A stretch of DNA of 53,684 bases from Bacteroidota bacterium (GCA_040388455.1 JAZKBX010000120.1:10982-64665); one strand, 5' to 3'. Shown: positions 1,057 through 43,240, numbered from the stretch's first letter. The notes: generated by a model not told the origin, from the letters alone. Made by a program: numbers and translations.

Positions 1057-3087
1057 ATGATTCAGAAGCCAAAAGATTTTGTTCGTGAACGTTTAATAGG
1101 AGATTACATTATAACTCTTCCTGAGTGCCCACCTGTCAATAAAATAGACAATTATAAACTTCCACAAAAGGATCAGAAATTTTGTAGAGCAGATGTTCCA
1201 AAAGATTTTAAGTCTTGGGCGCCAGAAAAACGAAAGGAATACATATCAAGGGAGTGGGATAGAAGGCTGAACGGGTATTGGTTCTACAATAACGGTAACA
1301 TAGAGTTTATGACCGGAATAAATTATTTTTATGTTTCGTGGTGGAGAATAAACACTGGGTATCCATTGTTTACAGATGCTGACAGAGATTTTTTCTATGT
1401 ATGGGATATGTGTGAGAAAGATGTATTGTGTGATGGACTTGTTTATATAACTCACCGTGGGGAGGGTAAAACTTACAAAGCGACCTGTATTCTTTATGAG
1501 CCTATTTCAAGAAGGAATAATGTAATTGCTACTATACAATCAAAAACAGAACCTGATGCAAGAAAAGTTTTCAATAAACTTGTTCAATCATGGAAGTATT
1601 TGCCTTCTTTCTTTAAGCCTATTGATACTGGAGTTAGTAGGCCAGCAAAGGTGTTGGAGTTTATGGAGCCATCTGTTAGAACTTCAAAAACACAAGAAAA
1701 AATAACATCTGATGTTTTAGATTCATTTCTAAGCTATCTGTCTTCTGGAGAGGTTGCTGGTGATGGGGACAATTATCACAGGATCCTTCAAGATGAAATT
1801 GGTAAAACGGTTGAAGTTAATGTTGACGACAGAATGAAGGTTATGCGTGAAACATTGAGGGCAGGAAGGGGTAAGTACGGTAGGGGTAAGATTTTAGCGA
1901 CCACTACCGTTGAGGAAATGGAGAAGAAGGGTGGTAAGAATTGTAAGTTGGTTTGGGATAAATCAAACCCAAAAAAGAGGGATGGTAACGGATATACGGT
2001 TAGCGGTCTTTATCGTTTATTTAAGCCTTCTGATTATGGGTATATTGAGATAATGAATGGCGAGTCTTTTATTGATGAATACGGGTATTCTTTAAGAGAA
2101 AAAGCGAAAACATTTTTTTTAAATAAAAGATCTGCCCTGAAAGGTAGTGACTTGAATTCCGAGAAAAGAAAGTTTCCTCTTGAAGAGAAAGATATTTGGG
2201 TATCTGACACGAAGCGTGCTGTATATGATACCCAAAGGGTTGAAGATCAGTTAGAGTATAACCAAAGCCTTGTTAATCAGCTGGTGAGAGGTAATTTCTA
2301 TTGGATTGGCGGTGTTCAGTATGGAACTGTTGGGTGGAACCCGGATGAGAATGGGAAGTGGTTATTGTCGTGGCTTCCTCCAAATGAGTTAAGAAATAAG
2401 ACTATTATTAATGCTGGTAAAAAGTCTCCAGGAAATGTAGACCTTAGTTGTGCTGGACTGGATCCTTATGATAATAACACAACTGCTGATGATAGAAAGT
2501 CTGATGCTGCAAGTTATGTTTTTAGAAAGTTTGATCCGTTGAATCCTTATGATACAGGAATATTTGTGTGCGAATACGTTAACCGGCCAAACAAGTCTGA
2601 GATTATGTTTGAAGATATGCTTATGCAATCAATATTTTATGGACACGAAATATTGATTGAAAGCAATAAAATTGGATGTATTAATTATTTCTTGTCAAAA
2701 GGGTATGAAAATTATTTAATGCGTAGGCCAGAAGAAACTCAGACTGCCAGTTCCAGAAAAATGACAGAGGATTGGGGTATCCCTATGTCCGGGTCCGAGT
2801 CAAGACAGAGTTTAGTATATGCCACTGAAAGCTATATAATTAACCGGGTGGGGATGATTCAGGAAGATGGTCAGCAGCCTTATATGGGAAAGTGTTATTT
2901 TAATAAACTTCTTCAGACTTGGTTAGATTATGATGTAGATGATGATTGGACAAAATATGATAGTATGGTAGGCGCTGGGCTTGCTTTACTTGGGGCAAGG
3001 AAGTATATTCCAAAGAAAAAAATCATTAAGAACTTGAATTTATTTCCTCAATTCAGGTTAAATGGTGATGTAAGTGAGCGTATATAG
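1057..3087 (+). CDS. terL: Terminase large subunit
   Basis: Walker A-like HRGEGKT, Walker B ILQDEIGK, RNase H-like nuclease motifs GLDPYD, LIESN and YDSMVG. Lies upstream of the portal. Confidence 0.92.
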   Translation: MIQKPKDFVRERLIGDYIITLPECPPVNKIDNYKLPQKDQKFCRADVPKDFKSWAPEKRKEYISREWDRRLNGYWFYNNGNIEFMTGINYFYVSWWRINTGYPLFTDADRDFFYVWDMCEKDVLCDGLVYITHRGEGKTYKATCILYEPISRRNNVIATIQSKTEPDARKVFNKLVQSWKYLPSFFKPIDTGVSRPAKVLEFMEPSVRTSKTQEKITSDVLDSFLSYLSSGEVAGDGDNYHRILQDEIGKTVEVNVDDRMKVMRETLRAGRGKYGRGKILATTTVEEMEKKGGKNCKLVWDKSNPKKRDGNGYTVSGLYRLFKPSDYGYIEIMNGESFIDEYGYSLREKAKTFFLNKRSALKGSDLNSEKRKFPLEEKDIWVSDTKRAVYDTQRVEDQLEYNQSLVNQLVRGNFYWIGGVQYGTVGWNPDENGKWLLSWLPPNELRNKTIINAGKKSPGNVDLSCAGLDPYDNNTTADDRKSDAASYVFRKFDPLNPYDTGIFVCEYVNRPNKSEIMFEDMLMQSIFYGHEILIESNKIGCINYFLSKGYENYLMRRPEETQTASSRKMTEDWGIPMSGSESRQSLVYATESYIINRVGMIQEDGQQPYMGKCYFNKLLQTWLDYDVDDDWTKYDSMVGAGLALLGARKYIPKKKIIKNLNLFPQFRLNGDVSERI

Positions 3088-3153: not shown

Positions 3154-5634
3154 ATGACAGTTGACCTTAAAGCTAAATATAATGCCTTTCCCAGCGACTT
3201 TGAGTCATTAGAGGAAAAGAAAACTGAAAGATTTGGTTTAGAGTACGTAAAGGCAATGTATTCGTTGCATGCGTTAAACTACCCCATTAACAACCCAACA
3301 ATGCTCCAGTATTTCATGAACAGGGAGTGGGCTGAGGGTATTTACAGTACAAATATTTATAAACCAAGAATGGGTATGGAGGGTGATACGTCCTTCCTTA
3401 ACCTTGATTATTCAGCTATTTGCAGGATACCGACTATTGTAGATAATATGGTTGGTAAGCTTACAAATAAGCCATGGCGATTCCAATGCAATCCTACCGA
3501 TACAGTATCCAGGTCAAAATTTGATGATGCCCGTGATGAAATGCGTGCAGATATGTTCTTGAAACAGCATTCTGATGAGGTTGAAAAAAGAACAGGTATT
3601 CCATTGATTCCAAAAGGTAAATTCGTTCCAGAAGACGAGGATGAAAAAGAGCTTCATCTTCAGATGAATTTTAAGTTGGATGAGGCTGAGGCTATGGAGC
3701 TTGCGTTGAAGTGGGTTTTCGATAATAATAATTTTGAAAAAGAGTCAGTTCCTAAAATTTATCGCGATTTAATTGTAGATAAAAAAACTGCTATATGGCG
3801 ATATTATGATGAGAATAAAAACATTAGAGTAAAACGATGGGATCACATAAAATTAATTCACCCGAATAGTGTAGAAGAGGATTTTAAAGATATCCCTTAT
3901 GTTGGTTTGCTGCAAACTTATACTATAGGAGCGCTTGCTAAAATGAATGCAGGACTTACTGATGAGCAGCTATATACAATAGCTAAGTGTCATGCAGGAA
4001 AAAATAATAATTTACCGTGGAATAGTGATTGGTATTTGAATTATCAAGCATATTCTGGTAGATACGGTGAAATAGCTTATCAGCAGTTTCAAAACTTCAA
4101 TATTGATTTGGTTAACTTTTACTTTTTAACTCCAGTTAATACTGTAAAGGCTGTTAAAACTAATGTATCCGGAAGGGTTCGTGTTGAAGATAAAAAAGGA
4201 GATTATGTTGCTGACACAAAAGAAAAAACTTTTGGTGAGCAGACTGAAGATGTTGATGTTGTAAGAAGAAAAAAACTTGTTCGATTTGAAGGGTTTTGGG
4301 TTCCGGGTACAGATATTATTTGGGATTACAAGATGTCTGAAAATGTTGAAAGAGATCCAACTCCTGGTGGTTATAGTCCTGAGACAGAGTTGCCAGTGAA
4401 GATAATCATGCCTAACATGATTGGTAATAAGAACAAGTCGGATGTTCAGCGGATGATTCCTATTGAAAAACAGGTAATGTTAGCCTGGTTGAAGCTTCAA
4501 CAGTTTCTTATAGAAGCTATGCCTCCAGGTATGGCTATAAACCAGAATGCATTACTTGAAGTTGTAAATGGCGCTGGTGAGGGTAAAGCTTTGCCTACTG
4601 ATTGGACTAAGCTTTATAAGCAAACCGGTAATATTATTTTTACAGATAAAGGTCCAGATGGATTACCAATAAACATTCCATTTAAAGAGTTGAACGGAGG
4701 TATAGGTCCTGCATTTATGGATTTCATGCGCGTTATGGATTACGGCATAAACAAAATGAATGAGGTAGTTGGATATAATACTGCTGTAGATGCTAGTTCT
4801 CCTAAAACGGATGTGTTGGTTGGCACACAGGAAATGGCTCAGCAGGCTACTTATGATTGTATGCGTCCTAAGTATATGGCTGCAACAAACCTTATAGAAG
4901 GTACAGGTAAGCGTGTAGGTTTGATGATACAGGATTGTTTGAGGTTAGGTAATGATTCGTTTAGGTTAGCTCTGGCTGAGGCTATTGGTCAGTCTAATGT
5001 TGATGTTCTTACTATGGGGCGGGATGTGCCTTTTTCATCTGCGGCTATCAGTGTGGAAATTCAGCCAGATGATTTTGAAATGCAAGCTATTAATAGGCAC
5101 ATTGAATTGGGTATTGCAAATAAAACTCTTACATCTTCCGATGCGCTTCGTGTTCGTCAGCAGCTGAAGACTAATGTTAAATTAGCAGGTCAGCTAATGG
5201 TTTTCCTTGAAAAGAAAAACATTAAAGAGGCTATTAAATTGCAGTCAGCAGCTATACAGGAAAATGCTGTAGCCCAACAACAATCTGCTCAGGTTGCAAG
5301 TCAAATGAAGCAGCAGGAACTTCAGTTGGAGAATCAAGCTAAAAAGGAGCTAATGCAGTTTGAGTATCAGTTAAAAGGAGGGTTAAGCGAACAAGAGCAC
5401 TTACAAAATATGCAGGAAATCGCGGGTAAAAACTCCGGGCTTATTCAGCAGGCACAAGTTAATGCTGGAAGAGCTATTCAAGTTCAGGAGATCAGCACTA
5501 CTGGAAAATTGGAAGAAGCTCATATTGCAAAAGAAGGTGCTATTGAGAAATCACATATTGATCATGAAGGTAAGTTGAAGCATGAAGCGTTTAAGGCTGC
5601 TGTTACACCTAAGAAGGAGCCTGCAAAAAAATAA
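3154..5634 (+). CDS. Portal protein
   Basis: 826 aa after TerL, 'FLNLDYS...IPTIVDNMVG' N-terminal motif, Gln-rich coiled-coil C-terminal barrel as in P22/crAss-type portals. Confidence 0.88.
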   Translation: MTVDLKAKYNAFPSDFESLEEKKTERFGLEYVKAMYSLHALNYPINNPTMLQYFMNREWAEGIYSTNIYKPRMGMEGDTSFLNLDYSAICRIPTIVDNMVGKLTNKPWRFQCNPTDTVSRSKFDDARDEMRADMFLKQHSDEVEKRTGIPLIPKGKFVPEDEDEKELHLQMNFKLDEAEAMELALKWVFDNNNFEKESVPKIYRDLIVDKKTAIWRYYDENKNIRVKRWDHIKLIHPNSVEEDFKDIPYVGLLQTYTIGALAKMNAGLTDEQLYTIAKCHAGKNNNLPWNSDWYLNYQAYSGRYGEIAYQQFQNFNIDLVNFYFLTPVNTVKAVKTNVSGRVRVEDKKGDYVADTKEKTFGEQTEDVDVVRRKKLVRFEGFWVPGTDIIWDYKMSENVERDPTPGGYSPETELPVKIIMPNMIGNKNKSDVQRMIPIEKQVMLAWLKLQQFLIEAMPPGMAINQNALLEVVNGAGEGKALPTDWTKLYKQTGNIIFTDKGPDGLPINIPFKELNGGIGPAFMDFMRVMDYGINKMNEVVGYNTAVDASSPKTDVLVGTQEMAQQATYDCMRPKYMAATNLIEGTGKRVGLMIQDCLRLGNDSFRLALAEAIGQSNVDVLTMGRDVPFSSAAISVEIQPDDFEMQAINRHIELGIANKTLTSSDALRVRQQLKTNVKLAGQLMVFLEKKNIKEAIKLQSAAIQENAVAQQQSAQVASQMKQQELQLENQAKKELMQFEYQLKGGLSEQEHLQNMQEIAGKNSGLIQQAQVNAGRAIQVQEISTTGKLEEAHIAKEGAIEKSHIDHEGKLKHEAFKAAVTPKKEPAKK

Positions 5635-5644
5635 TTACATTATT

Positions 5645-5686
5645 TTGTTACAATAATTACATGAATGTAATGAGAAATTATTTTTG
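5645..5686 (+). promoter_or_regulatory. Late promoter 3 (scaffold-capsid operon)
   Basis: TTGTTACA 5645-5652, TATTTTTG 5679-5686 (offset 34). Confidence 0.75.
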
Positions 5687-5717
5687 TGATATATAAATTA
5701 AATTTAATTAAATAAAA

Positions 5718-6851
5718 ATGCCTGACGAATTAACAATTGAGCAAAAGATAGCAGCTGATATGTCAGCTAGTTATGCAGAACATATAGGTGCTAACGTGCC
5801 GCCAGTAGTTCCTCCGGTTGAACCACCAGTTCCTCCAGTAGAACCACCAGTAGAGCCGCCACCAGTTGTGCCACCAGTAGTTCCTCCGGTTGAACCACCA
5901 GTTCCTCCAGTAGAACCACCAGTAGAAAAAACTTTTGAAGATTATTTGGCAGAGCGTTCTGGAGGTAAATATAAAAAGTGGGAAGATGTTGAGGTGGAGT
6001 TAACACCAAAAGAAATTTTCGCAAACGAAAAAATAAAGCACCTTAATGATTTAGCTGAAAAAGGTGTTGATGTAACGAGTAGAGAGTTCCTTGAACTTCA
6101 AAGTTTAGACTTTGATAAAATGGATAAAGTAGAAGATATTCTTTTCGAGAAGTGGAAACGCGGTGAAGAAGGAAAAGGATTATCTGAACGTACTATACGT
6201 TACGAAATAAATAAAAAATACAATGTTAATGAGTGGACCAATAAAGAAGCTGCTGATTTAACAGAAGATGATATCGCTAACAGAGAGAAAATGTTTCGTG
6301 ATTCAAACGAATCAAAATCCTGGTTAACGAATTATAAAAACGAACGAGTATTAGAAAAAACAATTGACCCATCTGAGGTAGAGGCAATGGCCGAAACGCA
6401 GAGACGCGAGTTACAAAATTGGGATACATTTGTTGACTCTAATTTAGTAAGTAAAATAACAAAACTGTCAACTCCGATTAGCTATAAGGATGAGACAGAT
6501 AAAGTGGTTGAATCAGTTCTTGATTTTCCGGTATCAGCAAAATCGCTTCAAGAAGTTGGAGAAATGATGAAACAGTTGCCAAGAAACTCAAATGCTTTTT
6601 TTGATCAGTTTAACAAAAAAGATGGAAGTAGAGATCATGAAGCGTTTGCTATTATGATGCTAAAGGCAAAGAGTTTTGATGAAGCAAGGGCTTTATCTTA
6701 TTCCGCTGGAGCAGAACAAAGGGCGTTAGTGATTGAAAAGACATCAAAGAACACAAATTTCAAACCTGCTGAGGTTACTCCTCAAGGCAAAGTATTTACA
6801 ACGGTAGCCGAAGCTCAGGCTGATGCTATTCGAAACATGAAAGTTTTATAA
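5718..6851 (+). CDS. Putative capsid scaffolding protein with Pro-rich N-terminal repeat
   Basis: Acidic helical protein between portal and MCP; (V/E)PPV repeats. Confidence 0.7.
   Translation: MPDELTIEQKIAADMSASYAEHIGANVPPVVPPVEPPVPPVEPPVEPPPVVPPVVPPVEPPVPPVEPPVEKTFEDYLAERSGGKYKKWEDVEVELTPKEIFANEKIKHLNDLAEKGVDVTSREFLELQSLDFDKMDKVEDILFEKWKRGEEGKGLSERTIRYEINKKYNVNEWTNKEAADLTEDDIANREKMFRDSNESKSWLTNYKNERVLEKTIDPSEVEAMAETQRRELQNWDTFVDSNLVSKITKLSTPISYKDETDKVVESVLDFPVSAKSLQEVGEMMKQLPRNSNAFFDQFNKKDGSRDHEAFAIMMLKAKSFDEARALSYSAGAEQRALVIEKTSKNTNFKPAEVTPQGKVFTTVAEAQADAIRNMKVL
5796..5926 (+). repeat. Coding tandem duplication, 72-bp period, built of PPV/PVE micro-repeats
   Basis: gtgcc(g/a)ccagtagttcctccggttgaaccaccagttcctccagtagaaccaccagtaga at 5796 and 5868. 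Confidence 0.9.
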
Positions 6852-6894
6852 TCTAAAAAAATCTAAAAAAAGGGTTTAAGAAACCACAAAAAAT

Positions 6895-8343
6895 ATGTAT
6901 TCATTTTCAACACCATCAACAGTTCAGGTAGCGACACAATCCAATTGGGTTGCATCTAACTCTATTTACGATCAGCGTAAACCGTATATTGATGCCCGCG
7001 AAGCGAAAGTTTGGGGTTCTCAGGATATTTCCGGTTTATTCGATGAGTTAAAAGGAGGTAAAAATTATGTAGAGGCTAATTTTGGTCGTCACATGGAAGA
7101 GGATCGTTTACACGCGATCATTCACGCAACTGGTACTACTCAGGCGGCTTTAGGAGCTGTTGTGTATACTGTAGTGTCAGGTGATACAATCACTTCATGG
7201 CCTTCCGTAGAATTACCGTATATCGCTACAGGTACTACAGGTTTTCCATCATTAGGTGGTGCAACTCTTGTTCCTGTTCGTGTTCACGAAGTGTTAGTGT
7301 TCCCAGGCAACGTAAGAGGTAAAGTAACTGCAGTGTCAGGTGCTACTTTTACTGTAACTCCAACCGGTTCAGTGGATTTACCAACTACAATTTCTACAGA
7401 CGAAATCTGGAGTTTAGGTATCTCGATTCCAGAAGGTTTCAAGGAGCAAATTACTTCAAACAACTGGAGAGAGCATGTTGTGTATTGGAATTCTGAGATC
7501 ATGCAAGATGCTCACGAAACAACTGGTACTGCAATGGTTCAAGCAACTTGGTTATCATTTACTGCTCCTGATGGACAGACAATGTTTAACTGGTGGTTTA
7601 AAGGCCAAATGGGTGCTCGTAAACAATTCGTTAACTACCGTGAGTTCTCATTGGTATTTGGTGAGTCTGTAACGAACTCTACAACTTTACCGGCAAATTA
7701 TTCTGCACAGTATCAACAAACAAATGGTTTGCTTCAGTTCGCGGCATCATTCGGTAACACACCGGTGTATGACCTTACTACAGGCATGACCTTGGATGAT
7801 TTCCAAAATATAATCATTGATACTTTAAGCAAAAATGCTGCATCAACTGAAAATTGCTTGTACACAGCGATCTCTGTAGATAAAATGTTAAGCTCATTTA
7901 TCCGCACTGAAATGCAAAATGGCGGTATCATTTATGATGCCCTTGGTGGATCAAAAGATGCGTATGTGAAACTTGACCTAAGAGACTTTGAAGTTTTAGG
8001 TTATACTTTCCACAGAAAAGTGTATTCAGTATTTAACGATCCAACTACGGCTGGAAACGTAAGTTCTGTGTATAAAAATTTCGCATTCATGGTGCCAATG
8101 GAAAGCAACATGTACGTATGTGCAGAGAAAAAAGAAAAAGTAGAATGTCCTCCAATGAGAGTTAATTACTTGAAACAAGGCGGCTTCAACCGTGAGTGGA
8201 TCGAGACGTTAACAGGTGGTGCTATCGGAAGCAATGCATATACTAACAATGGCGACTACGCTAAGGTTGATATGCGCTCTGAGTGCGCATTTGAAGGGTT
8301 TGGAGCCAACAGGTTCATGACCTTAACTGGAGAGAACCTATAG
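6895..8343 (+). CDS. Major capsid protein
   Basis: 482 aa after scaffold, biased codon usage (ttc/aac/atc), followed by a hairpin. C-terminal 'D...RSECAFEGFGANRF' resembles crAss-like/Bacteroidota podophage MCPs. Confidence 0.85.
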   Translation: MYSFSTPSTVQVATQSNWVASNSIYDQRKPYIDAREAKVWGSQDISGLFDELKGGKNYVEANFGRHMEEDRLHAIIHATGTTQAALGAVVYTVVSGDTITSWPSVELPYIATGTTGFPSLGGATLVPVRVHEVLVFPGNVRGKVTAVSGATFTVTPTGSVDLPTTISTDEIWSLGISIPEGFKEQITSNNWREHVVYWNSEIMQDAHETTGTAMVQATWLSFTAPDGQTMFNWWFKGQMGARKQFVNYREFSLVFGESVTNSTTLPANYSAQYQQTNGLLQFAASFGNTPVYDLTTGMTLDDFQNIIIDTLSKNAASTENCLYTAISVDKMLSSFIRTEMQNGGIIYDALGGSKDAYVKLDLRDFEVLGYTFHRKVYSVFNDPTTAGNVSSVYKNFAFMVPMESNMYVCAEKKEKVECPPMRVNYLKQGGFNREWIETLTGGAIGSNAYTNNGDYAKVDMRSECAFEGFGANRFMTLTGENL

Positions 8344-8347
8344 TTGA

Positions 8348-8388
8348 AATTGGGCGCAATTCTTAAATGTTTTGCGCCCAATTATTTT
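8348..8388 (+). terminator. Terminator/stabilising hairpin after MCP
   Basis: AATTGGGCGCAA-loop-TTGCGCCCAATT followed by ATTTT. Confidence 0.7.
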
Positions 8389-8425
8389 AAAAAAGTAGAG
8401 TTTAAATTAAATTTAATTAAATAAA

Positions 8426-9619
8426 ATGGAACCAATCAACAAGCCGAGAGGCACCTATGCCGATTTTTTATCTGGCGACTACTCTGAAAAACATTTCGTT
8501 TTTGAGTTAATCAAAAAAAATCCACAAGTTGGAAATAACTCACAGGGCAATCCTGCCCCTGGAATGAGAAGTAAAGAAACTGGTAAAACTGTAGAGTTTC
8601 CTTTAGCTGTTCCTATTCCATTAGTTGGAACTATAACTGCTGAAAAAACAGAGAGAAACCAGATAGTTAAATATCCTCGCAAAATCCGCTATTGTGTTGG
8701 CGAAAATAGTATCTTCATTGATGAACAGCAGCCTGATGATAAATTCCCTAAACAACTTGTTTATGCGAATTTTGTGAAAGGTCGTTTTCAGGTAGATGGT
8801 ACTGATAGTACATTGTTGAAATTTTTGTTTGCCTGGGATCAGAACGAAACCAATGAAAAAAGAAATCCAAAAAAATTCCCAAAATTTAAACTTGTTGATA
8901 CATCTGTAATTGCTCAAAAAGCTATTGCTGTAAATAAACAAAAGTTCGATGTTGTAAAGTGGTGTTACACTGCTGATTGGGAGACTGAAGTTAAGCCTTT
9001 GGCTAGCGTTATTTTTACGCATGAGCACATGTCTTATTCAACTGATGAGATACGCCATAACCTTGTTGTAATTGCTGAGAGAGATCCTGGTGCATTCCAA
9101 AAGATGTTAAAAGATCCTAAAACTGAGCGCCTTATGGTTTTGAAGGCTGCTATTGACAAGGAAATAATTGTTAAAAATCCTGCCATCAATGGTTTATTTT
9201 GGTCTGATAATCCTAATCAACCGATTAGTGTAGCTGCTTCAGGCAAAGAAGTGTTAGCTGATTTTATTGCTAAATCATTCTCTTCGGAAGGAGAGAAGAC
9301 GTATTACGCTATCAGGGATTTAGTGTTTCCAAAGGAGTCAGAAGGTTTTTCTGCTGCAACAGGTCAGAAGCCAATGGTTTTTGAGGCTCCAGTTGTAAAA
9401 GGTCCAACTGACACAACTGAAGAGCTTCGAACGTTGATTAAAGATGCTGTTGAAAGAGGAATTGTTGTTATAAGCAAAAATAATGTTTGGTGGAAATTTA
9501 TGGATAGCTCTTTCCAAAAGGAAGATGGTATGATTGAAGGTCTTCGTGACAATGAAATTATGCTTCAGGTGTTAAAAAGAAAAGTTCTTGAAACTCCAGT
9601 TGCGGAAGTTAAGGAATAA
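8426..9619 (+). CDS. Morphogenesis protein downstream of MCP (function unknown)
   Basis: 397 aa; 'RYCVGENSIFIDEQ' motif; same position as the conserved post-MCP gene of crAss-like phages. Confidence 0.6.
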   Translation: MEPINKPRGTYADFLSGDYSEKHFVFELIKKNPQVGNNSQGNPAPGMRSKETGKTVEFPLAVPIPLVGTITAEKTERNQIVKYPRKIRYCVGENSIFIDEQQPDDKFPKQLVYANFVKGRFQVDGTDSTLLKFLFAWDQNETNEKRNPKKFPKFKLVDTSVIAQKAIAVNKQKFDVVKWCYTADWETEVKPLASVIFTHEHMSYSTDEIRHNLVVIAERDPGAFQKMLKDPKTERLMVLKAAIDKEIIVKNPAINGLFWSDNPNQPISVAASGKEVLADFIAKSFSSEGEKTYYAIRDLVFPKESEGFSAATGQKPMVFEAPVVKGPTDTTEELRTLIKDAVERGIVVISKNNVWWKFMDSSFQKEDGMIEGLRDNEIMLQVLKRKVLETPVAEVKE

Positions 9620-11774: not shown

Positions 11775-12320
11775 ATGTCGGTAAATATTTGTGGAATATA
11801 TAAAATAACGTCTCCTTCAGGAAAGATTTATATTGGTCAGTCTGTAAATGTTTTATTAAGATGGAATAGTTATAAGTCTTTGCATTGTCATAAACAAAGG
11901 CATTTACATTCTTCATTAAAAAAATATGGCTCAGATAAACATAAATTTGAACTTGTTTGTCAATGCTCTAGAGAGGAGTTGGATAATTTAGAGTCTTATT
12001 ATATTGAATTATATCAGACTTTTAATAGTGAATTTGGCTTGAATTTGCAGGAGGGAGGGAGAACTCATATTGCTTCGGAAGAAACTCGAAGAAAAATGAG
12101 TGAATCGATGAAAGGTAATAAAAACGGATTAGGTAAAAAACATTCTGAAGAATCAAAGATAAAAATGAGTAAGGCTAGAAAAGGTATTCCTATGACCGAA
12201 AATCATAAGCAAAAATTAAGGGACGCTAAAAGTACTCCAGAGTCTAAAGCAAAAATGAGATTAGCGTATTTGGGTAATAAGAATGGTTGTAAAAACAAAG
12301 AAAATAAGGGATGTCTGTAA
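11775..12320 (+). mobile_element. Free-standing GIY-YIG homing endonuclease with NUMOD3-type repeats
   Basis: CGIYKITSPSGKIYIGQS, E..YI..Y..F...G.N, repeated (H)SEE(T/S)(R/K)xKMS motifs. Confidence 0.92.
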
Positions 12321-18660: not shown

Positions 18661-19172
18661 CTGAAGGAATCGAAAAAAGAGAAGAAAGATTGCTGCCAGA
18701 TACTAAGAGTATAAGGAAAAGCATAATGGAATATGAGGAACAAATAAAGAGCCAGGAAGGTGCTTTTATTGGAGATTCGCCTATATGTCCTTTGAAACAT
18801 ACGTTCAGTGAAGGCATTTATGTAAGGGAGATTCGCATTCCAGCTGGAACTTATATCGTTGGTAAGCTTCATAAACACGCTCATCCAAATTTTTTATTGA
18901 GTGGGGTTGTTGATGTGGTAACGGAACAAGGCACAACTACTTTAGAAGGGCCTATGTCAATGATTTCTCCTGCAGGAACTAAGCGTGCTTTGTATGTAAA
19001 GCAGGATGTGGTGTGGGTTACAATACACTCAAATCCAACAAATACACAAGATTTGAAAGAACTTGAATCTATTGTTATTGCAGATTCGTATGAGGAGTAT
19101 GAAAAATTTATTGAGAGTAAAAATGAAAATAAATTTATTTCGTTTATAAAAAAACTTTTAAATTGGAAATAG
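18657..19172 (+). CDS. Cupin-fold phage protein preceding ejection genes
   Basis: 'HTFSEGIYVREIRIPAG...KLHKHAH...SPAGTKR...TIHSNP' His-rich cupin-like motif. Confidence 0.65.
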   Translation: MTEGIEKREERLLPDTKSIRKSIMEYEEQIKSQEGAFIGDSPICPLKHTFSEGIYVREIRIPAGTYIVGKLHKHAHPNFLLSGVVDVVTEQGTTTLEGPMSMISPAGTKRALYVKQDVVWVTIHSNPTNTQDLKELESIVIADSYEEYEKFIESKNENKFISFIKKLLNWK

Positions 19173-19681
19173 CTACTGATATATTGCCTAATTTGTCACA
19201 GTCCGATATGAAAAGATTTTGGAGGAATGTTGATGTGCTGTCTGACGAGAATAAGTGTTGGAACTGGAACGGAGGTAAGAGAAGGAGAGGTTATGGTAGG
19301 TTTTATGTTCAGGTAGAAAAGAATAAAGATAAATCATTTGTTGCATCAAGGATTTCGTATTTTATAGAGAATAAAGTTGACCCTGTTGGGCTTACTGTTT
19401 TGCATAAGTGCGATAACCCTTCTTGTGTTAATCCAAATCATTTATTTTTAGGAACACCTTCGGATAATTCAAAAGATATGATTGAAAAGGGTAGGGGGAA
19501 GATGCAGTTTAAGGATGGTGAGGATCATCCTGGAGCAAAAATAACTGAAGATATTGTTCGTGATATACGGAGTGGTAAATATAATGGATTAACACAGATT
19601 GAAATTGGTAAAATTTTTGGCGTTGTCGCGTCTGTTATAAGTAATATTAAAAATTTTAAATGCTGGAAACATGTTAATTAA
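19163..19681 (+). mobile_element. Free-standing HNH homing endonuclease
   Basis: CWNWNG...GYGRF...ASRISY...VLHKCDNPSCVNPNHLFLGT..DN..DM..KGR, C-terminal HTH; TTG start uncertain. Confidence 0.9.
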
Positions 19682-20387: not shown

Positions 20388-21791
20388 ATGTATAAGGTAA
20401 ATCCTTCGGATGCAATGACCGAGCTTTATGGCCTGAATAAAGCTGATGCACAGATATTTGATAATAGGCTTGCTCAACAGACTATTGCTAAAAAACAGCA
20501 ACAAGATGAGCTTGCTAGGCGCGAAAAAGAGGCGAAACTGTCTGGTTTAATGTCAGATGTTTCGAAGATTGGTAAAGGCGAAATACGTCCTGCTGATCTT
20601 GATTACTTTGCAGGTGAGCAAAAATCGTTATATGATGATGTTAAAAAAGCATTTTCAGAATCTCGTGGTGGTACTCTTCCTATTGAGAAGCAAGTTGACT
20701 TCGAAAACCGTATTGCTGATATCCAAAGAAAGGCTGCAATATCTGGATCTCGCCATAAGCAAAATATGTCAGAGTATCAGAAAGCTGTTATGCATCCAAA
20801 CAAATATACTAGGGCAGATGAGATTGAAAGGATACAGGCAGACAGCTTCGATAAGGCTAATGCTGGTAAATTTAACGAACCTCTCACTACTTTGACCGAG
20901 AACTTTGATTACGGTCAATATGTAAATGATAAATTGGCTCCTTGGGCTATGGAACAAGCTAAACGTAGAGATAATCGTGGGGTTTATGCAAATACGCCTG
21001 AAGAAAGAAATCAAATGATCATTGATGATTTAGCTGATCCTGTTAAAATGCAACAAGCTGAATATGATTTTTCTTCTGCTAGTGATAAGTTGGGGACAAA
21101 TAATCCTATTGATTATTATGTGAAAAAATATGCTGATAAGTTAAAGGTTGATGTTAAGCCAAAACTTTCAGAGTGGGAGTCAGGTGGTGGAGGCTCTTCA
21201 GAAAAAGAGCCAAAAGTTTCTGGAGTGTATTCTCCTAATGATGATAATACTGGAAATTTTCAGTTTGAATATACAAATACAACAGACAATCCTTACATAT
21301 TAATTCAGGATCCAAAAAATCCAGGAAGCCAGTTAGGGGTGAAGCCGTTGTCTGTTTATATTGATAAGAAAACTCCTGGTAATACTAAAATGAAGGCAGC
21401 TGTTCAGTTGACTGCTGAACAAAAGAAGGATAATGATGAAGCTGTAAAAAATTCTGAATCAAAGCCGTATAGAGAGGTTATTGAACTTGGTTATACTGAT
21501 GTTGACAATATCATGAAAAACAAGTTTAAGGTTCCTAATGTGTTTTCTATAGCTCACGGAAATACTCCAAAAGGGGTTGATGTTAAGTATAATAATTCGC
21601 CAAACTCTAAAAAAGGTACGACAGTAGGTCCGAGTATGACTGATGCGGAGAGAGCTAAAGCTAAATATAGTGCCGTCCAAACATTTGATGAATATAAAAA
21701 TGCTTACATGTCCGCTAAAAATAAATCTAAATTAACTCAGGAAGATATAGATTACCTTAACAAGAAGTGGGCTGAAAAAACTAAAAAATAA
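20388..21791 (+). CDS. Internal virion / ejection protein (medium)
   Basis: 467 aa, helical and charged, between the pilot and giant ejection genes. Confidence 0.55.
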   Translation: MYKVNPSDAMTELYGLNKADAQIFDNRLAQQTIAKKQQQDELARREKEAKLSGLMSDVSKIGKGEIRPADLDYFAGEQKSLYDDVKKAFSESRGGTLPIEKQVDFENRIADIQRKAAISGSRHKQNMSEYQKAVMHPNKYTRADEIERIQADSFDKANAGKFNEPLTTLTENFDYGQYVNDKLAPWAMEQAKRRDNRGVYANTPEERNQMIIDDLADPVKMQQAEYDFSSASDKLGTNNPIDYYVKKYADKLKVDVKPKLSEWESGGGGSSEKEPKVSGVYSPNDDNTGNFQFEYTNTTDNPYILIQDPKNPGSQLGVKPLSVYIDKKTPGNTKMKAAVQLTAEQKKDNDEAVKNSESKPYREVIELGYTDVDNIMKNKFKVPNVFSIAHGNTPKGVDVKYNNSPNSKKGTTVGPSMTDAERAKAKYSAVQTFDEYKNAYMSAKNKSKLTQEDIDYLNKKWAEKTKK

Positions 21792-24700
21792 TGGAAAACA
21801 AAGTTACGATATCTGAAGATGAATTTGATGATGCACCAAAGGGTAGTGTAAGTATATCTGATAACGAATTTGATGATGCACCAGGAAACGAGGTGTCAAA
21901 AAAAAAATCCATCAGAATCATCATTGAGTTCGGATGGTGCTACATCGCCATCAACGGAAAGCGCCTCGGCCTACGCTCCCCAATCTATTACAGATCCGAA
22001 AAGTAAAATAAAGGAAGCTTTATCTGTTAAAGTTAATGAAGATTTTAGTAAAAATCCTATATTTCAGGATTCGAACCCTAATGCAAAAAGAAATAAAGAA
22101 ATTTATATCAACCATTTAGCATCCAAGGGGTACGATAAAAAACAGCTTCAAAATATTTCAGAAGGCGTAGACGACAGAACGAAGTTTATGCCTGATTTTG
22201 AGCGTCCGTATGGATCTCTTCAGCCTATTGTTGACTTTTCTGTTAATATGGTTACTGGTGCAGCTCAGGGGGTTAATGCCGGCCTTGAAAAGTTTAATCA
22301 AGGTATTGGTACTGTAGTAAATGCTTTAGGTGGTCAGACTGGAGGGTTTACTGACAAGGCTGAAGAACTTACAAAGGGTGGTCTTGAATCGGCTACCGGT
22401 TTGGGGGAAACGGCTTTAGCTGGTGCAAGTGTTGCTGTTCCGGAAATGGCTGCATTTGTGGCAAGTACAAGTGCTATAAAAGAAGCGGCTAGTGCTCTAC
22501 CTGATCATGAAGCAAAATTTGTAAATGATGTTGTTGACTTTCCTTTTGCTGCAGTATCAAAAACTGCACAAGCGCTTGGATTTAATCCAGAGAAACATGA
22601 GAATTGGGCTATGCTTATGGAGGTAGCCGATTTTGCTGCAATAGCAAAAGGTATCCAGGTATACGGAAAAAAAACAAATCCTATTCAATCAGTAAAAGAC
22701 CTTAATACTCTTTCAGATAAAGCTGTTAAGGGTGAAATGTCTCCTGAAGAAATGATTAAATATCAAGAGTTTGCTGATAAAACAAAGGATATTACATTAG
22801 AAGAAATACGTGAAGTAGCTGAAGAAAAAGGCTCATCCGAACTTGTTAAAAAGATTGATGAGAATATTGAATATGTTAAAAAAGAAAGGGAGAAACGTGG
22901 CCTTCCAACTGAAACTTACGTAGATGATCTTCCTGAATCTGTATTAAACACTATTGATCTTATTGATAAAGGCGCTCCTGTTGATGTGTCTGTTTTAGAG
23001 GAGTCAAGTAAAGCTTTGTATGATAAATACAAATTTCTGAAAGAAGAAAAGGAGAATCCTAATAGGATACAAACTATTGAGGAAATAAATAATATACAAG
23101 AAAAAATTGGTGAGGATATATCTTATATTGAAGATTATAAGAATAGAATGATCGAGGGAGATATTCCTTTGAATGAATTAAGTAAAAAGGTTGAGGACCT
23201 TAGTACAGAGATGAATAATGAAAATGTTTCTCCTGAAATGAAAGCTAAGTTTCAGGAAGAGATACAGGCTGCCGAATCTGAAATTAATAACATAAATGCT
23301 ATTAAGGATCAGAAAATATCTGATATTGCTAATTCTGAAATTGCGGATGCCAATAATGAGGTAATGCTTGAAATTAAGAAAGAGGACCTTAAAAACGCTA
23401 CAACTGAAACCGGAAAAGATTTAATTCAGAAGGAGATAGATGCACTAGAGCCGTTAGTTAATAATTCAAAAACAAAACCGGAGCGAAAGATTTCAAAAAA
23501 AACGGATTACACAAAAGGTAAGCGTGCTGAAGATGTTGCTGCTGAACAGGGTGTTGAATTTTCTTCTCCGGAACATGCTCAGCAATTTATTCTTGAAAAT
23601 TCAGAGAACCCTGCTGAAATTGCTACTGAGTATATGAACATGGAAGCTGATGGTGAAATAAGTTATAAATCGCAACAGCTGGAGGATTACGGTATTAAAA
23701 TGACTGATGAAGAGTTTAATCAGAATTTCGATAAGAACAAAAAGAATTTTACGCTTGCCAAAAAATATATTGATAATAAACGTAAAGTTCCTTTGGATGT
23801 TCAGCTTATGGAGCTGTCTGAACGTGCTGGTATTGAAATAACTGAACAGGATTTGTTTGATCATATTGATAAAATGGAATTGGACCGTGCTTCCGGAAAA
23901 GAATCAAGTTCAAAAACAAAATTTAAAAGTAAATTTTACGAGTTAACCGGTAAGGAATTGACTCCTGCTTTGGCACGTGAAATTATTAAGGATGAAATAA
24001 ACCAAAACATTGAAAATTATGAGCAATACATCACAAGAGAAAACCTCACTGCAGAAGCAGAAGAACAACTCTACTATGAAGGACTTAGAGATGGAACAAT
24101 TCCAACCTTCGACTCAGAGCGATATGGCAATGTACCGCGCGATAAAAAGGTTTCAAAAGGAGCAAAAAAAATAGAGCAAGCTGTAGTAGAAGCGGAAAAG
24201 CCTATTTCTAAAAAGGTAAATCCAGTTGAAGATAAGTTGCCGGATCTTGGGAATAATGATGCTACGCCTAAAACTCAGAAGTTAGCTGAACGAATGGAGC
24301 TTTCCAGCGTGGTTAACAAAGAAATTAAGCAAGGGTTGTTGGATAAAGGTACTGAGTATATTCCTTTAAACATTGATATTTCAAAAGCTGATGCTAAGCA
24401 GTATGTAGAAGCTATGGATAAGGCCGGTGAACTGGATAAGGCTATAGCGAATGTTACAAATATGCTTAAAAGTGATCCTAAAAATCTTAATGAAAGATTT
24501 AATCGTGGACTTATAAGTGCTGAGTTGTTTGAGAAGTTGGCAGATAAATCAAATAACGCTAAAACGGACGCTCAGAAAACATTATATCGTGACCTGGCTG
24601 TAGATTTGGCAAAGTTTGCCGCTGACAGCTTTACTTCTGCTGGTAAAGAATTAAATGCTGCAAAAGTTTGGAAAAGAATGATGGAGCGTACACCAGATGG

Positions 24701-27551
24701 TGTTGTTCAAAGTATTCGTGAATCTTATGCTGAACAAAATAAGCCTGTGCTCGACTCGTTGAAAGGTGATATAAAAGATGCAAAAAAAGTTATTGACGAA
24801 TTTCTTGAATCAAAAGATTTTAAGGATCTTGTTGGTAAAAAGGTTAAGGAGGAGTTAGTTAAGCTCGGTAAAAAATCTGAAGGTAAATCAATTCCAAAAG
24901 ATGCCAATATATTTAACAGTAAGGCTGTTCGTGAATCGCGTAAAACTGAATTGATGGCCAAATGGAAGGCTGCTAAGGGTAGCGCATCATCATCTATTGT
25001 TGGTCTAAATAAAGAACAGATTGAGGTTGCAGGTGAAATGGCTTTGATACATATTGTTGAGGGGGTTGTGAAGGCTGCTGATTTAGCTGTAAAGTTGAGA
25101 AGTTCTTTAGGTTTAACTCCTGAGCAGTTTAAAGATTTGTGGGAGAATGTTGATGTTGCTGGTAAAAAGATTAAGGAATATGCTGAAGAAAAAGCCAAGG
25201 ATAAGTTTGATGAAAAAACAATTCAAAAAGCTATTGATGTATTTTCCGGAAAGGAAATTGATAAATTGGAAGAAAAAGCTTATCGGGATGCTGTTAAGCA
25301 ACAACTGTCTGATCCAAAAAGCGAACTTTATAAAAAGTTGACAGAAAAGCTTTCTAATGTTAAGCCTGAAAACAGGAAAAAAATTCTTGGTGATATATTA
25401 GCTGAAGTTGAAAAGGTTGGTGGTTTGTCTGATAAAAGATTTCAGGAGATTTATGGTGAAGCGTTTGGATTAAAAACTCTTTCCGGTGCTGAAGAGGTTA
25501 AGATACGTGCCCTTATTGATACGATAAATAAAGCGGAGAAGACTGGCGCTGAGTTATCAAAAACTATACTTGGTGGCGGGACAAAGGAACAAATTAAGCA
25601 GAAGCGTTCTGAGTGGGAGAAGGCTGTATTTGAGGCTCAAAAAGCGAACAATGAAGTTTCTCAGTATTTTAAGGCAGACAAACGAATAGGTAATACGATT
25701 TCATCTTTCATTCAGGCCGGACTGTTAACATCAATGTCGTTACTGAAAAACGTATATTCTAATACATTGATGATACCTACCAGGTCTACCCGTAGAGGTA
25801 TTGCAAGTGCAGCTGATTATTTAATATCAAAAGCTACCAATACTCCAAGAACAATAGATGCTCTAGCGTATTGGAAGGGTGCCATGCAGGGTGTTCGTCC
25901 GGGAGTTGAGGTTGCTTTTAAGGAGCTTTTAGGTGGTGTTAATCCTGAGCAAATGACTGAACGGGATTATAACCAAACATTAGAGCCATTAAAGGCGATG
26001 TATAGCTTTGTTAACGGGTTGAAGGGCAAAGAGAAGATTGCTGCGTATGATCAGGTTAATAATTTCATGGAAGGCACATTTGGCTTATCAGCTGAATTAA
26101 TGTTTAGATTGCTTAATCTTGGTGACAAACCGAATCGGGTTGCTGCTGAATTTGGTGCTGCATTTGAAATTGGGAAATTAAAGGGGTTAAAAGGTAAGGA
26201 ACTTGATAATTTTGTTTTATTCCCAGATGAAATAAGCGCTAAGGAGATTAAGCTGCAGGGTGAGCGTGCTGTATTTCAGCAAACGGAAGGTTTAACGGGA
26301 GAGGTGAGTAAAGGTTTAAAGAAACTAGAGGATGTTATATCTAATAAAATTTTTCCTCAGATTCCGCTGGTTGGGGATGTCTTGAAGGTTCTCTGGAAGA
26401 CACAAATGCCTTATAAGAAAACTCCATTAAATATTTTGGGTGAAACATTTAAGTTGGTTCTTCCAGAGGTTAGTGTTGCTGAAGGTTTGTATCATGCGTT
26501 AAAAACTGGTGACAGAAAAAAGGCTCTTGAAAGTTTTTCTAACGCTGCTATAGGTTTTGGAATACGTGAAGGTGTAAAGGCGCTTATGGCTAATAACCTG
26601 GTTACTGGTAGTGGGGATTATCGTGATAAAGAAGGTAATATGATTCAACAGCAAAACGTTGCTCCAAGCTCCATTAATATAAGTGGTATGCAACGTATGT
26701 TCTCTGGTGGAACTCCAGCTACAAAAGATGGAGATACTTGGATTAATTATTCAAATATGGGTCCTATAGGAATTTTCTTAGGGGTGCATTCTCAATTAAA
26801 AGACGTTCCAGATGAAGCTAGAAGTTATTTGATGGATTTAGCTACTGTTGTTCCTGCTACTGGTCAATACGCTTTAGAGCAATCGTTTTTATTGGGAATG
26901 AATAATTTCTTGACAGCCATGGGTGATAAAGAGGGTCGTAGCAGAAGGAAATGGGCTTTAAATACACTTGGAACTGTAGGTTCTGCTTTTTATCCTAACT
27001 CTGTTGCAACTGTTAGTAAAGCAGCTGATGAAAATGTTCGTGAGTTAAAAGATGAAAAATTTTCTACTGAACTTGTAAATACATTTAAGTCAAAAATGTT
27101 TATGGGTGATGGTCTTCCGTCAAAGGTTAATTTGTGGGGAGAGAAAATAACCGGTGCACCTGAAGGTAGAAGTAAAATGTTATGGTATCTGATGGATGTT
27201 ACTAAGTTTAAAAATGTTCCTACGGAATCTTATAACTATAAGGTGTTTCAGTTATGGAATAATGTAGAGGATACTAAATTAAAAAACGGTGTATTGCCAA
27301 ATGTTCCTCAGCAAAAAATAACAGTTAAAGGTGAGTCTGTTAAATTAACTCCTCAGCAGTATGAAAAATATCAGATATACACTGGTAAAAACCGGGCGGC
27401 ACTCGTTAGAGATTATGCTGAATCTCCTAATTGGGAAAAAGATAGTGATGAAAAGAAGGTTGAACGGTTAAAGGGTTTGTATTCTGATGGCCTTAGTAAC
27501 GCTAAAAGACAATTATTTAAGGAGTATCCTGAACTAAAAAAGAAGAAGTAA
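21791..27551 (+). CDS. Giant internal virion/ejection protein, ~1919 aa, read across a +1 frame change at A10 (21898-21907)
   Basis: The ATG at 21791 is coupled to the upstream stop (TAATG). Its 71-aa frame overlaps the 1893-aa frame exactly at the A10 run. C-terminus resembles large podophage internal virion proteins. Confidence 0.7.
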
Positions 27552-43222: not shown

Positions 43223-43240
43223 ATATTTGTTTTTTTTTGT

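Follow-up and report, generated by a model that had tools for sequence, protein, structure and literature searches.

The 53,684-nucleotide (nt) stretch of DNA examined here, from an assembly of a Bacteroidota bacterium (GCA_040388455.1 JAZKBX010000120.1:10982-64665) and referred to throughout as the window, is phage DNA that encodes a terminase (1057-3087) and a portal protein (3154-5634), both with PHROG matches, together with virion proteins; the gene for one giant protein among these is the subject of this report. The frame that encodes the body of this protein lies +1 relative to a short open reading frame (ORF) that carries an N-terminal module, and the two frames meet at a run of ten adenines (A10; Table 1). 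The short ORF is entered through TAATG (21789-21793), in which the TAA of the ORF upstream, encoding 467 amino acids (aa), overlaps the ATG at 21791-21793, a stop/start overlap also present in the relatives L003, L004, L008-L011 and Gundel_1 described below. It is the product of standard decoding and reads MENKVT-ISEDEFDDAP-KGSVS-ISDNEFDDAP-GNEVSKKK-SIRIII...EK up to its stop codon. The two units of its twin motif (30 nt each) follow each other with a period of 45 nt and are identical at 27/30 nt, relatives carry twin motifs of other sequence at the equivalent position, and the 32-residue tail resembles nothing downstream. In its TC-A10-T context the run encodes SKKK when read in the 0 frame and QKKN when read in that of the body. 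The apparent starts of the body frame (TTG 21870 and ATG 21873/21876) fall within the second repeat unit, the public gene call for the giant gene starts at TTG 21927, omitting the N-terminal module, and with one A fewer the fusion from ATG 21791 is 5757 nt, or exactly 1919 codons, long. The initial annotation of this locus was accurate in all of these sequence statements, from the overlapping start, the duplicated motif, the A run and the stop of the short ORF to the +1 frame with its starts in the acidic repeat and a protein of about 1919 aa upon loss of one A. It had further proposed that the full-length protein requires a programmed shift at A10 and that the short product arises by standard decoding, a proposal which is supported by three out-of-frame relatives (L008, L013 and L067) and by in-frame fusions. 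The A10 is thus probably a real and conserved programmed slippage site within one giant virion-protein gene of a Bacteroidota podophage of crAss-like architecture.

Table 1. Features at the junction between the short ORF and the body of the giant gene (window coordinates)
Feature	Position	Strand	Description
Upstream ORF, 467 aa	20388..21791	+	TAA stop at 21789-21791; no Pfam or PHROG match
Short ORF (0 frame), 71 codons	21791..22006	+	N-terminal module (36 aa + KKK), then 32-aa out-of-frame tail
Twin motif ISEDEFDDAP / ISDNEFDDAP	21809-21838 and 21854-21883	+	Period 45 nt; 27/30 nt identical
Body frame of the giant protein	21852..27551	+	+1 relative to the short ORF; 1893-codon frame, stop at 27549-27551
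Weak RNA hairpin adjoining the run	21878..21896	+	GCACC (21878-21882) pairs with GGUGU (21892-21896)
A10 homopolymer, proposed slippage site	21898..21907	+	TCA AAA AAA AAA TCC
Downstream complementary segments	21909..21952	+	CCATC 21909/GATGG 21933; GATGGTG 21933/CGCCATC 21946

The A10 is the longest homopolymer in the window, and because 0.28-1.3 runs of at least 10 A are expected by chance at a GC content of 35.7%, a single such run is unremarkable; its significance can be taken to rest on conservation in relatives and not on the run itself. The closest relative at the DNA level, L003 (66% identical), has a TAATG start and an N-terminus of M-AEDSFEQDSF...KDSFVEDSFVADEP-EKKK, from which GAA AAA AAA AAG, with an A10, leads in frame into a homologous body, and L004 also combines a TAATG start with an in-frame A10 and the twin motif EWTPPTDAVV / EWTPPSDAVE. 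Both of these single-ORF homologues correspond to a fusion of the two frames of the window. On the other hand, three further DNA loci, all from other assemblies, are out of frame, and 3/3 of them repeat the layout of the window, that is a twin-motif ORF, C-A10-T and a body in the +1 frame. In L008 (a contig of 74.5 kilobases, 100% complete) the small ORF reads MAQDWTPPADAELSEENTGWTPPADATQVDEVAKKK and then STITIEIGRWYF... to a stop, across GTT GCA A10 TCC, and the +1 body follows a stop codon with MRLQKKNPLLPLKSEDG... and is intact over 1956 codons. In L013 the small ORF reads MPDNKDPLGILSKDTKPKDPLGILSEDSAKKK..., the run lies in TCC GCA A10 TAT, and the +1 body (...YQKIPQKKNIVTPSAES...) is intact over 1878 codons; its frame contains no ATG, GTG or TTG from the upstream stop to about 60 codons beyond the run, so that a body beginning near the conserved N-terminus would need a shift. 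The third locus, L067, has a small ORF MEDKLPTLDELNNDSTSETLPTLDDLNGVAKKK... with the run in GTG GCA A10 TCC, and body lengths of about 1900 codons were measured in L008 and L013. The initial annotation had regarded continuous homologues as evidence against a shift; eight lineages are indeed in frame with A10, but L008, L013 and L067 keep an out-of-frame A run after a short ORF. In-frame relatives join homologous N-terminal modules to the body via A10, and the WTPP twin motif of L008, which is out of frame, has its match in the in-frame L004, L010 and L011.

A locus pattern free of run and frame information, which combined TAATG with the C-terminal end of the gene upstream, retrieved four loci: L010 and L011, with A10 in frame, L009, with A7 in frame, and L012, on the same contig as L008, out of frame. 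L046 and L049, identical in the region, read ...DESQKKNPFQ... in frame with A10, and on this account the notion that a QKKN start always marks an out-of-frame gene was rejected. By lineage, A10 occurs with the body in +1 in the window, L008, L013 and L067 and in frame in eight lineages (L003, L004, L010, L011, L046/L049, the phi38:1 group, Gundel_1 and elemoE), L009 has A7 in frame, and the phi46:3 group has A9 with the body in -1, so that the run is exactly A10 in 12/14 lineages. Other loci returned by the pattern scans were chance matches (L005-L007; 15/16 loci of one scan; L047; L064-L066 and L068-L071; L073 and L075-L079). As a separate observation, the giant gene of L003 is in two parts (868 aa, 3908-6514, and 837 aa, 7016-9529), between which lies a gene for a 165-aa ferritin-like protein (6519-7016; PF00210, E 8e-19) that looks like an accessory insertion in a giant virion gene.

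A muzzle-like protein connects the window to flavobacterial podophages, and in the cultured phages the giant gene is built in the order muzzle-like gene, N-terminal twin motif, A10, Ser/Thr/Pro-rich linker and a body of 1700-3700 aa. For example, gp101 of the Cellulophaga phages phi38:1, phi40:1 and Calle_1 reads MEEELDEFGIPVKK...LDEFGIPLKKK, encoded across the run by CCA TTA AAA AAA AAA GAA, gp074 of Tenacibaculum phage Gundel_1 starts at a TAATG and reads ...RYAVKKKDEE, and gp18 of Flavobacterium phage elemoE reads ...DPEKKNQNS. These genes resemble that of the window in their position after the muzzle-like gene, the twin motif, exactly A10, the linker and the giant body, but differ from it in that A10 is in frame. 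Because similarity between the giant protein of the window and the phi38:1 body is nil (best E 0.25), and that to the Gundel_1 body marginal (E 4e-5 over 173 aa), the likeness to the cultured phages is one of architecture and synteny. Notes in the records state that phi40:1 gp101 and phi18:3 gp123 were detected in virions by tandem mass spectrometry (MS/MS). The A10 of phi38:1 and phi40:1 agrees with that of Calle_1, which was sequenced on Illumina according to the available text of PMC8776804.

A further arrangement is found in four Cellulophaga phages (phi46:3, phi18:3, phi19:3 and phi13:2; 98% identical here), which are annotated with an ORF of about 100 aa followed by a "structural protein". 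In this group the small ORF carries the twin motif ...YDLGTYEEFETK / ...YSLGSYDEFETK and then SSLKKK, where it meets an A9, beyond which the frame of the body (FIKKKDVSESTSQ...) is -1, so that an A10 would restore the frame. The A9 may belong to a -1 variant of the site, or one A of the run may have been missed in sequencing. The genomes of this group reportedly come from an older pyrosequencing project, which would make such an undercall possible; phi38:1 and phi40:1, whose A10 agrees with that of Calle_1, are from the same project. In phi18:3 and phi46:3, a fused product would have a junction spanning ...SSLKKKDVSESTSQ.... The GenBank records of phi46:3 and phi18:3 (L030/L031, 1235-1555) list the small ORF as gp119, "structural protein", and gp122, "hypothetical protein", respectively, and place the body start at 1555, despite the body frame being already open from just before the A9 (1429-1437). 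Homology between phi13:2 (L032) and phi46:3 (L030), at 98% identity, extends from query base 193 onward, a point 2 nt upstream of the run (L030:1429-1437), and the N-terminal module of phi13:2 differs from that of phi46:3 and is related to that of Gundel_1. Since the homology starts 2 nt before it, the run marks a recombination or module boundary.

The run is also maintained at the nucleotide level. Given the encoded peptide and own codon usage, the probability of at least ten A is 0.08-0.31 at each of seven in-frame loci, with a product of 2.9e-6 (L046, found later, was left out), and the run in the giant gene is the only homopolymer of at least 10 in 4/4 genomes, namely the window and three complete viral genomes. 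On both grounds, the run is selected as DNA and not merely as Lys-Lys-Lys.

At the protein level, a scan of 1.84 billion representative proteins gave 96 matches to the giant protein, and the N-termini of 97 proteins, these 96 and P0002, were classed by script. The twin motif is followed by an in-frame xKK(K/N) in 23 of them and occurs without a K-run in 19, at least 2 of which are wrongly assigned when judged by eye; 17 begin at, or no more than 25 residues upstream of, QKKN without the twin motif (18 by eye, which adds P0075), 4 are uncertain (VKKN, AKKN, GKKN), and 34 have an unclear start. This last class includes the gene call of the window itself (P0001, TTG 21927), as well as P0019, a relative of the out-of-frame L067. 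Where the K-run is in frame, it occurs as LKKK, VKKK, PKKK, SKKK, IKKK, EKKN or EKKK, the residues that are possible with A10 in each of the three registers. Searching with a profile of the small ORFs of the window and L008 gave four more small ORFs (P0099-P0102; 65-75 aa, from four data sources), which have the twin motif, VAKKK and a common out-of-frame tail, ...TIE(F/I)(G/Y).W...ING(K/R)S...R(S/N)P(I/F)Y, the residue after the run being Ser or Tyr, with no stop. A tree was built on the N-terminal 650 aa of 33 proteins, which are the first 38 (P0001-P0038) less 5 that were shorter than 1000 aa. Proteins of the QKKN class are scattered over it: 13 changes are required for 13 rows, at least 11 of them forced by well-supported branches, at least 10 changes between QKKN and in-frame classes are needed among the 26 scored rows, and several out-of-frame/in-frame sister pairs have 95-100% support. 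On this tree, frame state is evolutionarily labile while the run persists.

A hairpin immediately 5' of the run recurs at the out-of-frame loci. That of the window has a 9-nt loop, leaves 1 nt (C 21897) between stem and run and folds with -5.9 kcal/mol in a 30-nt window, at the 4.5th percentile of windows from the same locus. The corresponding stems are UGCAACC-CA / UG-GGUUGCA in L008 (-10.3 kcal/mol), GGAAUCUU / AAGAUUCC in L013 (-10.8 kcal/mol) and CCACAC / GUGUGG in L067 (-8.0 kcal/mol), so that in 4/4 out-of-frame loci the 3' end of a hairpin lies 0-1 nt from the run, each hairpin being of different sequence. The share of 12,989 background 30-nt windows that fold as well with an abutting stem is 4.6% for the window, 0.29% for L008, 0.22% for L013 and 1.4% for L067, which was retrieved with a pattern that fixes just 5 nt of the 3' arm of its stem. 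An equally strong 5' stem is found in 1/9 in-frame lineages (L046, -10.9 kcal/mol; Fisher p = 0.007, post hoc). Downstream of the run, the complementary segments from which the initial annotation had drawn two hairpins are present, but a functional structure is not borne out: folding of the 73 nt that follow the run is at the level of shuffled sequence (z -0.15, 90/200 shuffles at least as good), the downstream windows give z -0.15 and -0.85, and the 60 nt downstream are not significant in the window and have no common structure among relatives. These hairpins were accordingly rejected as a functional element, folding at shuffle level and not being conserved.

From these observations we infer that slippage occurs at the run, as well as its direction, its efficiency, the machine that slips and a role in the ratio of short to long product. 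Ribosomes would start at ATG 21791, coupled via TAATG to the upstream gene, and would translate the twin-motif module; standard decoding of A10 mRNA would then stop at 22006 and yield the 71-aa product, and a fraction of expression events would move to the +1 frame and yield the 1919-aa fusion (...GNEVSKKNPSESS...). The most likely route would be the synthesis by RNA polymerase of A9 (one A fewer) or A12 (two more) mRNA, which a nascent hairpin ending 1 nt before the run would assist, and a less likely one would be a +1 shift of the ribosome on AAA AAA AAA. The junction peptide of the fusion would read ...EVSKKNPSESS... or ...EVSKKKNPSESS..., with ...GNEVSKKNPSESS... being the form expected from A9 mRNA or an early ribosomal shift, ...SKKKNPSE... 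that from A12 mRNA and ...SKKKPSE... that from a ribosomal shift at the last Lys codon. The two routes are not distinguishable by sequence alone, but within the recoding hypothesis we lean slightly toward polymerase slippage, because the loss of one A that is needed here equals the one-nucleotide loss driven by 5' stem-loops. A signal for +1 ribosomal frameshifting was not found after the run, where the 0-frame codon is UCC (window, L008 and L067) or UAU (L013), nor was a stimulatory 3' structure that is significant in the window or common to relatives.

According to the available text of PMC5009743, runs of 9 A or T are efficient sites of RNA polymerase slippage in vivo, transcriptional slippage at nine A/T in Thermus thermophilus dnaX gives tau and gamma, slippage at T5C5 in an IS630-family element of Roseiflexus loses one nucleotide under the action of a nascent stem-loop that is 5'-adjacent, AAA AAA AAA in Escherichia coli coding sequence is 50-fold rarer than expected, with one instance, and ribosomes shift or slide on A runs that encode lysine. 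The A10, on the coding strand and within coding sequence, exceeds the threshold of at least about nine A/T given there for slippage of the homopolymer type (PMC5009743). With dnaX it has in common a homopolymer of at least 9 in coding sequence and homologous genes elsewhere that are differently arranged around the site, as well as, in the mechanism proposed here, heterogeneous mRNA and two proteins with a common N-terminus in a set ratio. The dnaX case differs in that its full-length protein is made without slippage, which adds a shorter product, whereas in the window the long product would need the shift; moreover, the window concerns a phage virion gene, whose A10 is retained across several phage families in either frame. 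The Roseiflexus element resembles the window in having a stem-loop directly 5' of the motif and a long protein that needs a one-nucleotide loss (+1), as would be the case in the window, but its motif is heteropolymeric and silent without the hairpin, whereas the homopolymer of the window should slip alone; the hairpin is also weak in the window, and a similar one is found in some in-frame relatives. As for ribosomal frameshifting on A runs, AAA AAA AAA is a known shifty, sliding sequence, but in contrast to +1 systems of the prfB or antizyme type, the window lacks classic stimulators, and the 0-frame codon after the run in the out-of-frame loci is an ordinary sense codon (UCC or UAU). A literature search, with supplements and the original Cellulophaga phage paper outside its scope, found nothing on this site or on recoding in these phage genes, and none of the words frameshift, slippage and homopolymer occurs in the available text of Bartlau et al. 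(PMC8776804). Slippage of this class is an established mechanism; new are the gene family and phage group concerned, the family-wide conservation of exactly A10 whichever the frame, and the repeated frame flips.

Other explanations for the locus bear on these conclusions to different extents. It is unlikely, although several features would fit, that the locus holds two separate genes without recoding, i.e. a 71-aa protein and a giant protein initiated at ATG 21873 or 21876 (MMHQETRCQKKN...), with the A-rich stretch after the start easing initiation in a host without Shine-Dalgarno pairing. The features that fit, and with them a number of properties of the hairpin and of the data, weigh against programmed slippage. 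The ATG ATG of the window is in frame with the body, lies 7-8 codons upstream of the run and permits independent initiation, an ATG in L008 and a GTG in L067 precede the run by 2-3 codons, and 8/18 QKKN-type proteins begin exactly MQKKN, a count that, like others for this class, depends on the start choices of gene callers. The architecture is plastic, with the body of L003 split by a ferritin gene and 19/97 proteins in the class that has the twin motif without a K-run, so that the run is not indispensable to the family, and frequent frame flips on the tree are what would be expected if fission were tolerated. The hairpin of the window itself is weak (5 bp including a G-U pair), the hairpin test was devised after L008 and L013 had been seen, in-frame L046/L049 also have a -10.9 kcal/mol stem at the equivalent position, and in 46-nt folds the in-frame L003, L004 and phi38:1 show stems that end no more than 2 nt from the run. 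Two independent genes, however, are difficult to reconcile with L013, whose body frame offers no start codon near the run, and with the homologous N-terminal modules that belong to the giant protein in nine in-frame lineages. The ATGs may be by-products of Asp codons (GAT G..) in acidic 0-frame sequence, that of L008 sits within the hairpin, and the 0-frame tail is a mere out-of-frame reading of the conserved body linker; separate genes would also provide no reason to keep exactly A10 or a 5' hairpin at the junction.

Phase variation at the DNA level or a recent inactivating indel, by which run length would toggle and the A10 would be an OFF or decaying allele, is improbable. Homopolymers this long are in general hypermutable, the tree requires the frame-state changes described above, and phi46:3, phi18:3, phi19:3 and phi13:2 have A9 and a -1 body where A10 would be in frame. 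Yet 4/4 out-of-frame +1 loci share the A10 length with in-frame genes, their offset stemming from a base outside the run, so that simple length toggling is disfavoured; the out-of-frame allele is the consensus in four independent assemblies, and since the bodies are intact over 1878-1956 codons, the A10 genotype appears viable and selected. The contigs of sequencing run X1, from which the window probably derives, contain no run-length variant, a weak point given that contigs lose rare variants. That the true run is A9 or A12, within one continuous ORF, and was misread by sequencing or assembly had been considered in the initial annotation and can now be regarded as very unlikely. Such runs are error-prone on some platforms, coverage is only about 10x, and a search of public runs found this DNA in X1 only, a DNA run, and in no RNA run, a further point against our interpretation, so that independent sequencing is not at hand; runs X2 and X3 gave no contigs over the window. 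Nevertheless, a second assembler yields an identical A10, in a 7004-nt contig from an independent assembly of X1 (depth about 10) that covers 21300-22500 with 0 differences and 0 gaps, an agreement which, X1 being the probable source sample, tests the assembler and not the sequencing chemistry. Judging from this agreement, the A10 is no assembly artefact. The dense series of ORFs in the window is interrupted by none of the other 13 A/T runs of 8 or 9, and three A8 runs lie within the giant ORF itself. The +1 offset with A10 is repeated in 3 other assemblies, 4 small ORFs (four data sources) and 18 protein clusters, and an error would always have to amount to one A too many, together with a coincident C before and T after the run. 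Both in-frame and out-of-frame genes carry A10 and the offset lies in a flanking base, and the frame offset is for this reason no miscounted homopolymer. The second-longest homopolymer in the window, T9 at 43230-43238 (A9 on the minus strand), lies in an 18-nt gap between minus-strand genes just upstream of ATG 43222, where it is an A-rich leader and breaks no frame.

Beyond the window, programmed slippage at A10 could be part of a dual-product switch common to the family, a reading which we put forward tentatively, as possible rather than probable. A10, often with a 5' hairpin, would mark the boundary of an exchangeable N-terminal module, both products would be made by slippage, their ratio would be retuned by moving the downstream frame, and the run would serve as the breakpoint for module swaps. 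Such a switch would span Pervagoviridae, Pachyviridae, Elemovirus and uncultured lineages of crAss-like architecture, with the run kept for a very long time; retuning would have happened at least ten times, and phi13:2 versus phi18:3 would exemplify a swap of the N-terminal module at the run. In-frame genes would make mostly the fusion and out-of-frame genes mostly the peptide.

With regard to the phage itself, the 1296-aa ORF at 14331-18221 matches PF25729 (crAss_MUZ_C; E 9.7e-10, above the family cutoff), so that a muzzle homologue lies upstream in the structural operon, as in the crAss-like virion module. Two homing-endonuclease genes are found within the same operon (11775-12320 and 19163-19681), one GIY-YIG with NUMOD3 and the other HNH. 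The 467-aa upstream ORF has no Pfam or PHROG match. The giant protein has no sequence match in Pfam, PHROG or the PDB, and none that would relate it to a cargo protein or a virion RNA polymerase that has been characterised; PDB sequence matches were confined to ankyrin-repeat proteins at chance level (E 0.03-0.5), and an AlphaFold2 model of residues 13-412 (5 aligned rows) is all-helical and too poor for use, with a mean predicted local distance difference test (pLDDT) score of 50.6. The label "ejection protein", used in the initial annotation, is a putative one, suggested by gene order and by the virion proteomics notes in the records of similarly built cultured phages. No relative of the giant protein was found among phages by blastn of 21300-23300 or by tblastn with residues 13-512 or the C-terminal 1383 aa as query, in viral contigs searched with the giant protein and with the protein alignment, or in genome contigs searched with the alignment. 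Among 68 genomes of the family or order of the host (one family, one genus, 68 species) only G000 carries the giant phage gene, and among 401 genomes of its class only G000 matched it. A scan of the window for RNA signals gave no terminator-like site and promoter-like sites not above shuffles, and an Rfam search matched no family, its one sub-threshold snoRNA match being taken as chance.

If slippage at the A10 is true, the largest virion gene is wrongly annotated by gene callers throughout a widespread group of Bacteroidota phages: the gene call in the window drops the N-terminal module, and the Cellulophaga phage records split the gene into a "hypothetical protein" and a "structural protein". 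The cultured phages with A10 in frame (phi38:1, Calle_1, Gundel_1 and elemoE) or with A9 (phi18:3 and phi46:3) make the site directly testable. Through this site, a phage structural gene would join the few genes that depend on slippage by RNA polymerase, and its relatives (in frame, +1 and possibly -1, with and without hairpin) would form a natural series for how a homopolymer and a nascent hairpin set product ratios. The phylum concerned differs from E. coli in its signals for transcription and translation.

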